A stretch of DNA of 64,000 nt from assembly GCA_951406725.2 (NCBI GenBank), contig OX597835.1:8432001-8496000 (forward strand), given 5' to 3'. Of this stretch, positions 6,539-45,480 are shown in pieces. Position numbers and translations under genes: made by a program. The first letter of the stretch is position 1. Every line of letters starts with the position of its first letter. The DNA comes from Octopus vulgaris. Lineage: Eukaryota. Under the pieces are notes generated by a model that was not told the DNA's origin, searched no databases, and saw only the letters and a program-made list of their open reading frames with translations.

Positions 6539-7545
6539 TGAGGGAGAGAGATGTGGAGAAAGAGAGAGGGTGAGAGAGAATATGACTTAAAATTTCCGCC
6601 ATGTGAAGCAGAAGAACCCCGCCCATAAAAGCATTTTCTAAGATGTAAAATCTATTTTTGCATAATTATGTTAAATGATGTTACAACGTTAAATGGCGGA
6701 GGTGGACTCTGCAGGTGACTGTCAATAAAACCGCTGCTGTTTCTTCTCACTTTGCAAACAACAGCCTCCTTTTCTGCTGCAGGTAAGCGAAGGTGGAGCT
6801 GTCTAATTTATGCTCGTATACATTATCCTTGTACTTCCACTGCAATGATAGCAGTGAAGCAGCAATTGGCCCTTTGGCAATGTATAAAGAAATAACTCAT
6901 TGACCACACATACCCACAGGCACACCACAGATACACACATACACACACGCATACACACACACACAGCACACACATGCACATACCATTCACACACACACAC
7001 ACACGCATATACACATCGATATTCACGCACTTTCTCTACGGGTTACTTTTATTGAAGTCGCACAAAAGGCTCTGGCTCCCTGGAAGCTTTACTAAGAAAC
7101 ATTTGGCTAGGTTTTAACCCATTTACAAGTTATGTTCTTCGTTTATTGGAAATTATCTTCACTTAAAGGGATTATAAACAAACGCCTAGTGGTAGGATTT
7201 TATACAACTTTTTTCGACGTTTGTCACTAAACTAAAATGACTATATGTGGTCTCTGACTTATTTATGTTCTATAATTTTTGATTTAATTATGCAAATTAC
7301 ACTTCGACGTAAATGTTCTATACTCTGTATTTATATCAAGCTGAATTCAATGTAGGATACATTTTGTGAGGTTGGCGCTAATTGAGGCAGAAACACATAT
7401 TCTCAGTTGCATTTTAAGTCCCTAATATAACCACATAGCGTCTTAATAGCTTAACAGTTTCGTAGAACTATCCTCAACATTGTTTCCTCAACATTTTCTG
7501 CAATTTTCTTTAGGGTCGGGCGGAATTATCACAAGGATTTTCTTT

Positions 7546-19299: not shown

Positions 19300-19610
19300 A
19301 TATAATATTTCTATTATTGAAAACAAGTGGATGTATTCCACTGTAACTAGGTAAATAAAATCTTCGAACAGACGGTCAGTAGCGACACCTGCTGGTTCTG
19401 ACTACGCTGCATTGATAAAGGGCAACAACCCTGAAACATGTCTGCAGATATCTGACTAGCTAGGTGAAGCGGCTGACCTCCCCTGTTCAAAGGTTGTAAT
19501 GGACGCAGGTTCGTGTGTCATATAGCTAGCTAGAGGCGATGACCTCTTGGAGCTAATCAGCGACAGCTTTAGTCTTATTTATAGACTGCCATATTAGTAT
19601 GGCGATAACT
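19300..19610 (+). mobile_element. Short hammerhead-bearing cassette between (TA)n tracts
   Basis: Structured cassette with hairpins AGAGG..CCTCT, AGTCT..AGACT and GCCATA-TTAG-TATGGC; TA runs on both sides. Confidence 0.65.
19407..19447 (+). ncRNA. Minimal hammerhead ribozyme with variant U3-A8 core
   Basis: CTGCA-TTGATAA-AGGG-CAACAA-CCCT-GAAA-CATG-TC-TGCAG; all helices perfectly paired; palindromic ACATGT helix III; GUC triplet. Confidence 0.8.
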
Positions 19611-19641
19611 ATATATATATATACATGTATGCATATGTATG

Positions 19642-19676
<35 letters not shown>

Positions 19677-19677
19677 T

Positions 19678-19721
<44 letters not shown>

Positions 19722-34787: not shown

Positions 34788-35169
34788 GGAGCACTCCGTC
34801 GGTTGCGACGATGAGGGTCCCAGCTGATACGATCAACGGAACAGCTTGCTCGTGATATTAACATGCAAGTGGCTGAGCACTCCACAGACACGTGTACCCT
34901 TAACGTAGTTCTCGAGGAGATTCAGCGTGACACAGAGTGTGACAAGGCTGGCCCTTTGAAATACAGGTACAAGAGAAACAGGAAGAAAGAGCGAGAGCAA
35001 ATTGTGGTGAAAGAGTACAGCAGGGTTCACCACCACCCCCTGCCGGAGCCTCGTGGAGCTTTTGGTGTTTTCGCTCAATAAACACTCACAATGCCCGGTC
35101 TGGGAATCGAAACCGCGATCCTCCGACCGCGAGTCCGCTGCCCTAACCACTGGGCCATTGCGACTCCAC
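34788..35169 (-). mobile_element. SINE family A, full length
   Basis: Reverse complement of family A; TSD CGTGGCATGTA at 34774-34784 and 35170-35180. Confidence 0.95.
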
Positions 35170-35192
35170 CGTGGCATGTAACTTGCTATCCA

Positions 35193-35390
35193 GAAAGTTG
35201 TGGTGAAAGAGTACAGCAGGGTTCACCACCACCCCTGCCGGAACCTCGTGGAGCTTTAGGTGTTTTCGCTCAATAAACACTCACAATGCCCAGTCCGGGA
35301 ATCGAAACCGCGATCCTCCGACCGCGAGTCCGCTGCCCTAACCACTGGGCCATTGCGCCTCCACCGTGGCATGTAACTTGCTATCCAGAA
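35193..35390 (-). repeat. Tandem duplication (about 195 bp) of SINE A head plus flank
   Basis: Repeats about 35001-35195 including flank CGTGGCATGTAACTTGCTATCCAGAA. Confidence 0.9.
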
Positions 35391-37657: not shown

Positions 37658-39925
37658 GGCGGCGAGCTGGCAGAAACGTTAGCACGCCGGGCGAAATGCT
37701 TAGCGGTATTTCGTCTGCGTTACGTTCTGAGTTCAAATTCCGCCGAGGTCGACTTTGCCTTTCATCCTTTCGAGGTCGATAAATTAAGTACCAGTTACGC
37801 ACAGGGGTCGATGTAATCGACTTAATACCTATGTCTGTCCTTGTTTGTCCCCTCTGTGTTTAGCCCCTTGTGGGTAATAAAGAAATGGGTATTTCGACTC
37901 CGTTACGTTCTGAATTCAAATTCCGCCGAGGTCGACTTTGCCTTTCATCGTTTCGGGGTCGATAAATTAAGTACCAGTTACGCACAGGGGTCGATGTAAT
38001 CGACTTAATCCGTTTGTCTGTTCTTGTTTGTCCTCTCTGTGTTTAGCCCCTTGTCGGTAGTAAAGAAATAGAAATAGGTATTTCGTCTGCGTTACGTTCT
38101 GAGTTCAAATTCCGCCGAGGTCGACTTTGCCTTTTATCCTTTCGGGGTCGATAAATTAAGTAGCAGTTACGCACAGGGGTCGATGTAATCGATTTAATAC
38201 CTCTGTCTGTCCTTGTTTGTCCCCTCTGTGTTTAGCCCCTTGTGGGTAATAAAGAAATAGGTATTTCGTCTGCGTTACGTTCTGAGTTCAAATTCCGCCG
38301 AGGTCGACTTTGCCTTTCATCGTTTCGGGGTCGATAAATTAAGTACCAGTTACGCACAGGGGTCGATGTAATCGACTTAATCCGTTTGTCTGTTCTTGTT
38401 TGTCCTCTCTGTGTTTAGCCCTTGTCGGTAGTAAAGAAATAGAAATAGGTATTTCGTCTGCGTTACGTTCTGAGTTCAAATTCCGCCGAGGTCGACTTTG
38501 CCTTTTATCCTTTCGGGGTCGATAAATTAAGTAGCAGTTACGCACAGGGGTCGATGTAATCGACTTAATACCTATGTCTGTCCTTGTTTGTCCCCGCTGT
38601 GTTTAGCCCCTTGTGGGTAATAAAGAAATAGGTATTTCGTCTGCGTTACGTTCTGAGTTCAAATTCCGCCGAGGTCGACTTTGCCTTTCATCGTTTCGGG
38701 GTCGATAAATTAAGTACCAGTTACGCACAGGGGTCGATGTAATCGACTTAATCCGTTTGTCTGTTCTTGTTTGTCCTCTCTGTGTTTAGTCCCTTGTCGG
38801 TAGTAAAGAAATAGAAATAGGTATTTCGTCTGCGTTACGTTCTGAGTTCAAATTCCGCCGAGGTCGACTTTGCCTTTTATCCTTTCGGGGTCGATAAATT
38901 AAGTAGCAGTTACGCACAGGGGTCGATGTAATCGATTTAATACCTCTGTCTGTCCTTGTTTTCCCCTCTGTGTTTAGCCCCTTGTGCGTAATAAAGAAAT
39001 AGGTATTTCGTCTGCGTTACGTTCTGAGTTCAAATTCCGCCGAGGTCGACTTTGCCTTTCATCGTTTCGGGGTCGATAAATTAAGTACCAGTTACGCACA
39101 GGGGTCGATGTAATCGACTTAATCCCTTTGTCTGTCCTTGTTTGTCCTCTCTGTGTTTAGCCCCTTGTGGGTAGTAAAGAAATAGAAATAGGTATTTCGT
39201 CTGCGTTACGTTCTGAGTTCAAATTCCGCCGAGGTCGACTTTGCCTTTTATCCTTTCGGGGTCGATAAATTAAGTAGCAGTTACGCACAGGGGTCGATGT
39301 AATCGATTTAATACCTCTGTCTGTCCTTGTTTGTCCCCTCTGTGTTTAGCTCCTTGTGGGTAATAAAGAAATAGGTATTTCGTCTGCGTTACGTTCTGAG
39401 TTCAAATTCCGCCGAGGTCGACTTTGCCTTTCATCGTTTCGGGGTCGATAAATTAAGTACCAGTTACGCACAGGGGTCGATGTAATCGACTTAATCCGTT
39501 TGTCTGTCCTTGTTTGTCCCCTCTGTGTTTAGCCCCTTGTGGGTAATAAAGAAATAGGTATTTCGTCTGCGTTACGTTCTGAGTTCAAATTCCGCCGAGG
39601 TCGACTTTGCCTTTCATCGTTTCGGGGTCGATAAATTAAGTACCAGTTACGCACAGGGGTCGATGTAAGCGACTTAATCCCTTTGTCTGTCCTTTTTTGT
39701 CCCCTCTGTGTTTAGCCCCTTGTGGGTAATAAAGAAATAGGTATTTCGCCTGCGTTACGTTCTGAGTTCAAATTCCGCCGAGGTCGACTTTGCCTTTCAT
39801 CCTTTCGGGGTCGATAAATTAAGTACCAGTTACGCACAGGGGTCGATATAATCGACTTAATACCTATGTCTGTCCTTGTTTGTCCCCTCTGTGTTTAGCC
39901 CCTTGTGGGTAATAAAGAAATAGGT
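37658..39925 (+). repeat. SINE family B head followed by a 12-unit tandem array (183/189 bp units)
   Basis: Units start GGTATTTCG at about 37705, 37888, 38077, 38260, 38448, 38631, 38820, 39002, 39191, 39374, 39557, 39740. Confidence 0.97.
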
Positions 39926-39949
39926 ATGATGTTGGACCGGTGGAAAATA

Positions 39950-44964: not shown

Positions 44965-45468
44965 TTGCATTTCATTTAATCATTTTATATTTGTTAATTG
45001 TAATTTCTAACAATACATCGAGGCATACTAGACACGGAAGGTTCTGTGTTTAGTAGTTCAAAGCTGTGTCAAGGAATTAATATTAAATGGCTGCTTTTGA
45101 TCCAAAAACATTGATAATCTGAAGAGGATTTGGAACCAAGGGCATAAATTACCTGTAGTGTACATATTGGCTTGTCTATCTGTCTGTCTGCCTTTCTGTA
45201 TTTCTGTCCCTCATCTTTGCATTTCATTTAATCATTTTATATTTGTTAATTGTAATTTCTAACAATACATCGAGGCATACTAGACACGGAAGGTTCTGTG
45301 TTTAGTAGTTCAAAGCTGTGTCAAGGAATTAATATTAAATGGCTGCTTTTGATCCAAGAACATTGATAATCTGAAGAGGATTTGGAACCAAAGGCATAAA
45401 TTACCTGTAATGTACATATTGGCTTGTCTATCTGTCTGTCTGCCTTTCTGTATTTCTGTCCCTCATCT
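44965..45468. repeat. Recent 252 bp tandem duplication of non-repetitive DNA
   Basis: 44965-45216 and 45217-45468 differ at about three positions. Confidence 0.95.
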
Positions 45469-45480
45469 TTCTTTCTCTCT

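Follow-up and report, generated by a model that had tools for sequence, protein, structure and literature searches.

A fixed U3-A8 hammerhead motif in a young 362-bp repeat of the octopus genome, most likely a non-LTR retrozyme

In the genome of Octopus vulgaris we found a young, dispersed repeat with a tandem unit of 362 bp that carries a type I hammerhead motif with a fixed U3-A8 pair in place of the C3-G8 pair of the catalytic core. We hold with good, though not full, confidence that this repeat is a non-LTR retrozyme which likely depends on Penelope-like elements for its mobility, and whose RNA is predicted to cleave itself slowly and mainly when two copies come together. This reading draws on observations in genomic sequence: how the motif is built, that its core is fixed, that the unit occurs in tandem, how its copies are inserted and how relatives covary. 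The copy from which the analysis started lies in a stretch of 64,000 nucleotides (contig OX597835.1, positions 8,432,001 to 8,496,000 of the forward strand), hereafter the window, to which the coordinates below refer unless a locus is named.

The hammerhead motif and the state of its core

The motif (19407..19447, plus strand) showed the architecture of a type I hammerhead, with three helices arranged around the core and helix I open. Helix I comprises five Watson-Crick pairs (19407-19411 with 19443-19447) and leads into the core heptamer TTGATAA (19412..19418), in which U3 is position 19412 and A8 position 19417. Helix II (19419..19432) has four pairs (19419-19422 with 19429-19432) and a loop of 6 nt that begins with CAA, as in the consensus of the Rfam family HH9. 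It is followed by GAAA (19433-19436), by the palindrome ACATGT (19436..19441), through which helix III is predicted to form between two copies, and by C17 of the GUC triplet (19442), after which cleavage is predicted by the established hammerhead numbering (19442..19443). Fold and alignment further suggested that helix I is prolonged beyond an internal loop by a long arm (19386-19401 with 19451-19466, spanning 19386..19466 on the plus strand); within this arm the window copy and the unit at locus L017 differ by a single G-to-A change. U4, G5, A6, N7 and A9, G12, A13 and A14, the A15.1-U16.1 pair and H17 are all present in the motif. Literal C3 and G8 are absent, with Watson-Crick pairing between positions 3 and 8 retained as U3-A8. 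The original prediction, which placed the departure from CUGAUGA at exactly these two positions, was thus borne out by the parse of the motif. A strict descriptor that left positions 3 and 8 free matched once in the window and in none of 300 Markov resamples.

The same prediction had described helices I and II and a palindromic helix III with GUC as perfect. This holds for helices I and II and for the triplet, but helix III is perfect solely as a duplex of two copies, because the energy of a single copy, -10.1 kcal/mol, rose to -4.4 kcal/mol when the closing pair of this helix was forced; the duplex of two ACATGT palindromes had -4.6 kcal/mol. Folded alone, the 66-nt motif region was no better than its shuffles (z -0.06). 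The window copy gave no match to the Rfam hammerhead families at E values up to 10. Five C3-G8 loci of the same genome were missed by Rfam as well, so that the U3-A8 core alone does not account for the miss, and we rejected it as proof that this core hides the motif. Elsewhere in the window, a loose hammerhead-like match on the minus strand (7470-7538, with G3-A8 and a stem II region of 39 nt) failed the strict descriptor and is probably due to chance. Other repeats of the window included twelve head-to-tail copies of a 183-bp unit (37705-39927; 92% match, SINE-like by appearance) and two-copy tandem duplications at 35002-35390 and 44965-45470 (195 and 252 bp, 96-98% match).

Among copies of the 362-base repeat U3-A8 is the normal state and not the outcome of decay. 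A search with exact flanks and a free core yielded 192 genomic matches. Of the 100 listed, 96 had TTGATAA and none CTGATGA, and the remaining four carried a single change each, at positions 3, 5, 6 and 9. A second sample of 100 copies was chosen by a 24-mer downstream of the motif; TTGATAA was present in 71 of the 72 copies that reached far enough, and in the other one the core could not be parsed. Across the copies covering the respective site, U3 was unchanged in 77/77 and A8 in 80/80. The canonical-core version of the motif had no exact match among 258 near-matches, and its ten one-mismatch matches consisted of six from a different, older family, one with U3-G8 and three with C3-A8, two of the latter being truncation junctions. 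Core positions deviated in 9 of 1,191 cells compared with 371 of 18,824 other non-CpG cells in 100 copies (p 0.0014), and still did so less often when four subfamily columns were removed (9/1,191 versus 282/18,475; p 0.034), with both p values serving as a guide only since the copies are not independent.

These counts bear directly on the possibility of decay, in which the window copy would derive from a CUGAUGA hammerhead by two chance transitions after its insertion. Both changes are indeed transitions towards A/T in an AT-rich genome, and an older C3-G8 sister family exists, but the double state prevails in copies sampled without bias for the core, no copy of the family has CTGATGA, and two of the three apparent C3-A8 copies turned out to be truncation junctions. 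We consider decay after insertion refuted by the core counts and give it practically no credence. The view of the original prediction that the double change is a variant and not decay therefore stands: the consensus of the genomic copies is TTGATAA and not CTGATGA, and single mutants are genome-wide far rarer than either Watson-Crick pair.

The repeat unit, its insertions and Penelope-like elements

The window copy (19303..19612, plus strand) was identified by alignment to the natural tandem unit of L017 as a circularly permuted, sub-unit-length copy of 310 bp with a single hammerhead, and both of its ends blur into TA-rich flanks. Matches of 94-98% to this 310-base repeat were found on many contigs (2,708 candidates, 40 scored). 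Natural head-to-tail tandems at L017 and L231 had a period of 360-362 bp, one type I hammerhead per 362-bp unit and no ORF between units, and copies exceeding one unit length were common. The unit has a GC content of 42%, below the 45% ceiling of retrozymes, and its predicted circle had z values of -4.8 and -4.9, with 0 of 100 shuffles as low. We found no Pfam family on the scanned ORFs overlapping the unit and no tblastn match of the Penelope protein to it. Parts of the unit were covered by contigs from four presumed RNA runs, a kind of evidence that is blind to strand, ends and level and carries weight in neither direction. Size, GC content and tandem layout agree with those of non-LTR retrozymes, and the carrier is most likely one of them. 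The window copy itself, with one motif and less than a unit in length, is for this reason probably an inert product of the retrozyme cycle.

The insertions ended on their 3' side at two A/T-rich sites 59 nt apart, and their 5' ends were scattered. A (TA)n microsatellite followed 99 of 141 scored 3' ends, as it does in the window (19610..19717), where it is the likely target site; other, often TA-rich, sequence followed the remaining 42. An inverted, 5'-truncated partner was present at 16 of 30 loci. The repeat thus displays partial tandems, an inverted 5'-truncated partner, an optional 3' tail and a microsatellite target, which are hallmarks of mobilisation by Penelope. In the accessible text of Craig 2021 the insertion pattern of Penelope-like elements is described, with a spacing of 30-40 nt between the two 3' ends compared with 59 nt here. 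With linear, cleaved RNA as template, many insertions would be expected to start where the RNA is cut. Among 100 insertions, however, none had its 5' end at the predicted site, 95 ran through it and five began 3-7 nt after it, and no fossil of cleavage in the form of insertions starting at the site was present. Insertions that span the cut site fit ligated circles and equally uncut RNA. A clustering of 5' ends was seen 37-46 nt after the predicted cut site (L003, L005, L009, L021, L022, L026, L032, L033, L034, L040 and L054), where the unit is internally complementary; it might reflect either a stop of reverse transcription, a fold-back site or an effect of the alignment.

Searches of 144 loci and of 44 endonuclease loci revealed no autonomous element with the unit as its terminal repeat. 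In the 144 loci the unit was not associated with an RT plus GIY-YIG ORF between Penelope-type terminal repeats (pLTRs), the arrangement of autonomous Penelope-like elements, nor with a full same-strand Penelope ORF upstream, and there was no nucleotide similarity between the unit and the pLTRs in the 44 endonuclease loci. RT pieces near L013 (LINE-like by appearance), L066, L009 and L068 were rejected as a parent for lying on the opposite strand; near L032 and L062, short N-terminal pieces on the same strand did not amount to a full element. As no autonomous element carrying the unit was found, we infer the mobilising partner.

At least four Penelope-like families of this genome carried U3-A8 motifs in their terminal repeats. 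In a young autonomous family with an intact 781-aa RT/GIY-YIG ORF the motif was located 0.4-1.1 kb after the ORF. Such a motif, U3-A8 in every case, occurred at 29 of the 44 endonuclease loci (26 places), and three further families with 45-64% protein identity carried a U3-A8 motif as well. The autonomous U3-A8 family has a weak helix I made of A/U pairs only. Like the 362-bp repeat, the intact 781-aa elements had a (TA)n target and two 3' ends. The family at L175-L183 (for example L176 1664-4006) encoded many intact 781-aa ORFs with 95-97% identity, together with a second upstream ORF of 330-480 aa containing a 138-nt internal repeat; its targets were (TA)n, its two 3' ends were separated by about 40 nt, and it was probably active recently. 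The autonomous U3-A8 clade is putatively Neptune-like, judging by a CX2-5CxxC linker which is described in the literature and was seen here. A more distant RT piece was encountered upstream of the C3-G8 motif at 2 of 20 loci. The helix III palindrome of the motif at L176 4880-4922 was identical to that of the window motif (19436-19441), the two families being otherwise unrelated. RNAs of both could consequently pair in principle, and the identity may be chance among the few palindromes that are possible.

Covariation of positions 3 and 8 among relatives and across the genome

For a phylogenetic comparison we collected 170 motif-bearing segments, dropped eight poor or truncated rows and randomly thinned the commonest young type to 15. 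The resulting tree of 125 rows, in which positions 3 and 8 were masked, was unrooted and came with a long-branch warning. A clade of 76 rows (SH-aLRT 98) held 67 U-A, seven C-A and two U-G rows and included old and young subfamilies (median identity 88% and 97.5%). Within this clade the palindrome took three forms (ACTAGT, ACATGT, ACGCGT) and paired changes affected helices I and II, with U3-A8 retained. The sister group of 25 rows was older (81%) and had C3-G8 in 22 of them. A U3-G8 family of 13 rows with 95% identity was sister to one U3-A8 copy and provided 11 of the first 100 U3-G8 matches in the genome. Seen at L249-L258, this amplified family combines its U3-G8 wobble core with a GUU triplet and has a single mismatch in helix I. 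Rows with C3-A8 never grouped but appeared as scattered singletons (10 rows, 10 changes) in a non-exhaustive sample hand-picked from targeted searches. C3-A8 was not seen as an intermediate family in this sample, and its apparent cases at L061, L067, L096 and L144 were 5'-truncation junctions.

In 104 distinct motifs (109 less five left out) 92.9% of the helix cells were paired, with 234 double changes, compared with at most 48.9% in slid controls, a fraction that is inflated because the rows are related and were pre-filtered for pairing. Positions 3 and 8 read U-A in 60 of these motifs, C-G in 23, U-G in 12 and another combination in nine. Paired changes in helices I, II and III within the U3-A8 lineage point to continued selection on the helices after the switch. 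U3-A8 likely arose from C3-G8 via a tolerated U3-G8 wobble, a direction which we infer from C3-G8 being the general state, the tree itself being unrooted. Families with other 3-8 pairs (G-C, A-U) were not found among 40 hand-picked loci of a loose pattern, and the A3-C8 and C3-U8 matches among these loci were without helix I. Three repeat copies with 98-99% identity (L191, L218 and L219) had a hammerhead-like core with C3-U8 and a palindrome but no helix I. A young C3-G8 tandem family with a period of 359 bp was seen at L229 (508-2714) and L230, with seven near-identical motifs in an inverted-plus-tandem array, and represents a natural canonical control.

A genome-wide census used one pattern in which positions 3 and 8 were set in turn, with the reversed pattern as control. 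It counts copies and not independent origins, and it is partial since the pattern requires a palindrome centre of two bases and takes no account of the helices. We obtained 18,569 matches for U3-A8 (control 2,135), 5,559 for C3-G8 (1,041), 2,248 for U3-G8 (1,329) and 2,125 for C3-A8 (1,035). After subtraction of the background this corresponds to approximately 16,400 U3-A8 versus 4,500 C3-G8 motifs, a ratio of 3.6, with U3-A8 amounting to 72% of the four states. Autonomous elements contribute much of the U3-A8 count. The odds ratio for covariation of positions 3 and 8 was 74 on the excess and 1.6 in the control. The original prediction had stated that searches based on CUGANGA would miss such families, which may hence be undescribed. 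Its first part is supported, as about 72% of the background-corrected motifs would be missed, and its second part is not, U3-A8 cores being already in print.

Known hammerheads, a possible cycle and alternative explanations

According to the accessible text of Perreault 2011 (PMC3088659), natural covariation of positions 3 and 8 to U3-A8 was first reported there, as rare, whereas it is the commonest state in the genome studied here. For the Cercyon Penelope-like elements of Schistosoma mansoni, approximately 1,300 U3-A8 and 2,000 canonical minimal motifs were described (Cervera and de la Pena 2014, PMC4209133), and the supplement of that paper includes rows with UUGAUAA and UUGAAAA and one row with U3-G8 (Saccoglossus). 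These publications, the second with the very same heptamer, contradict the notion that the variant is new. As far as described in that text, the Schistosoma minimal motifs resemble ours in the UUGAUAA heptamer, the palindromic helix III and the dimer model, but have a long helix II, an extra base after A9 and an ill-defined loop 1, and are located in pLTRs (PMC4209133). In contrast, the octopus motif has a helix II of 4 bp, no extra base after A9 and an extended helix I, and it belongs to a non-coding tandem unit in a genome whose motifs, as counted here, are mostly U3-A8. The window motif is thus not a minimal hammerhead of the kind found in Penelope-like elements.

Animal non-LTR retrozymes, for example the 350-390-bp units of mussels, likewise carry a type I hammerhead in an ORF-less tandem unit (PMC7229834). 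Judging from the part of that paper available, the shared features extend to a size of 170-400 nt, a GC content below 45% and a predicted circle with strong self-pairing (Cervera and de la Pena 2020, PMC7229834) and to the coexistence with Penelope-like elements. The core of the octopus repeat is U3-A8, and no such core is mentioned for animal retrozymes in the accessible text of PMC7229834. Non-LTR retrozymes are proposed to derive from Penelope terminal repeats in the accessible part of a preprint (Li 2026). The Rfam family Hammerhead_HH9 (RF02275) likewise has an internal loop in helix I, a 4-bp helix II and a hexaloop starting with CAA, and a comparison of layouts matched the window motif to it in the start of loop II and in the helix I internal loop. 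The loci L233, L250 and L252, relatives of the window's motif, matched HH9 weakly at E values of 1e-5 to 1e-3 (29-36 bits versus a gathering threshold of 52), whereas the window motif, whose helix III is a bare palindrome, gave no match at E up to 10. In a literature search with partial coverage of subscription papers and supplements we found no publication on U3-A8 in a full-size retrozyme hammerhead and none on a genome with a U3-A8 majority. What we describe is a hammerhead of the retrozyme type whose core swap was already known, and the value of the finding therefore lies in its scale and in a clean comparative series and not in new chemistry.

The motif is a fixed and probably functional variant, and self-cleavage is predicted for it. 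In the cycle we propose, tandem copies would be transcribed, two motifs would pair via the palindromic helix III, and loop II would dock onto the internal loop of helix I, with U3-A8 replacing C3-G8 in the active fold. Cleavage after GUC would free unit RNAs which could be ligated into circles. A (TA)n-targeting Penelope-like RT/endonuclease might then use circular RNA or uncut multimers as template and begin copying at either of the two A/T-rich sites, giving rise to permuted, 5'-truncated and inverted insertions. The kinetics of the 3-8 swap were reportedly treated by Martick and Scott in 2006, by Przybilski and Hammann in 2007 and by Nelson and Uhlenbeck in 2008, and a 2017 paper by Lunse et al. 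is said to concern hammerhead dimers.

It could also be that the fold was kept while cleavage is negligible, with selection acting on RNA shape, on the pairing of copies or on binding of the Penelope protein, U3-A8 having drifted under A/T bias and uncut multimeric RNA being inserted. The 95 of 100 insertions that span the cut site with no pile-up there agree with this, as do the weak helix I of the autonomous U3-A8 family and the reports of minimal Penelope hammerheads as poor cleavers. In addition, pairwise screening of a type III hammerhead showed rescue of the 3-8 pair by a G-C swap alone and none by U-A (accessible part of Roberts 2023), and the one Penelope-like element tested in vitro, from Anolis, was inserted without need for cleavage, with no RNA reads ending at the cleavage site (accessible part of Frangieh 2024). 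Covaried 3-8 pairs are, on the other hand, stated to be active in vitro in the available text of Perreault 2011 (PMC3088659). Negligible cleavage is further at odds with the genome-wide covariation of the 3-8 pair, a feature of the tertiary-stabilised active fold in the literature, with the failure of C3-A8 to form a family in our sample and with the better conservation of unpaired core positions than of the flanks. We regard this explanation as unlikely, though it deserves some weight.

Considerably less probable is that the repeat represents a solo pLTR or the 3' stub of an unfound autonomous Penelope-like element instead of a self-standing retrozyme unit. Its insertion anatomy is that of Penelope-like elements, pLTRs are reported as the source of retrozymes (preprint by Li 2026, in the part available), and a neighbouring ORF was looked for in 144 of many hundred loci. 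The head-to-tail units at L017 and L231, which have no intervening ORF, and the common copies longer than one unit argue against this origin, as does the lack of a full same-strand ORF upstream and of nucleotide similarity to pLTRs in the loci searched. The motif, moreover, has full size and a prolonged helix I, which sets it apart from the minimal motifs of pLTRs. We prefer the interpretation of the repeat as a likely non-LTR retrozyme with a predicted self-cleaving RNA.

On the scale of the genome we suggest, tentatively and with more doubt than conviction, that U3-A8 displaced C3-G8 as the majority state, with multiple origins (in the Neptune-like Penelope clade and in retrozymes) via an amplifiable U3-G8 state, and that it was selected as a slow core, by which RNA in circular or uncut form stays available to be reverse-transcribed. 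If true, the genome would contain a natural C-G, U-G, U-A series in homologous full-size hammerheads, and their context would make up for a swap which gave no rescue in one in vitro screen. By the one-pattern count, most motifs of this genome would escape hammerhead censuses that rely on CUGANGA. Homologous natural ribozymes with C3-G8, U3-G8 and U3-A8 occur within the retrozyme lineage, and this series makes it directly testable how much cleavage is needed by Penelope-linked hammerheads and which context permits the 3-8 swap. The scale of the phenomenon and the natural C-G, U-G, U-A series merit a modest follow-up.
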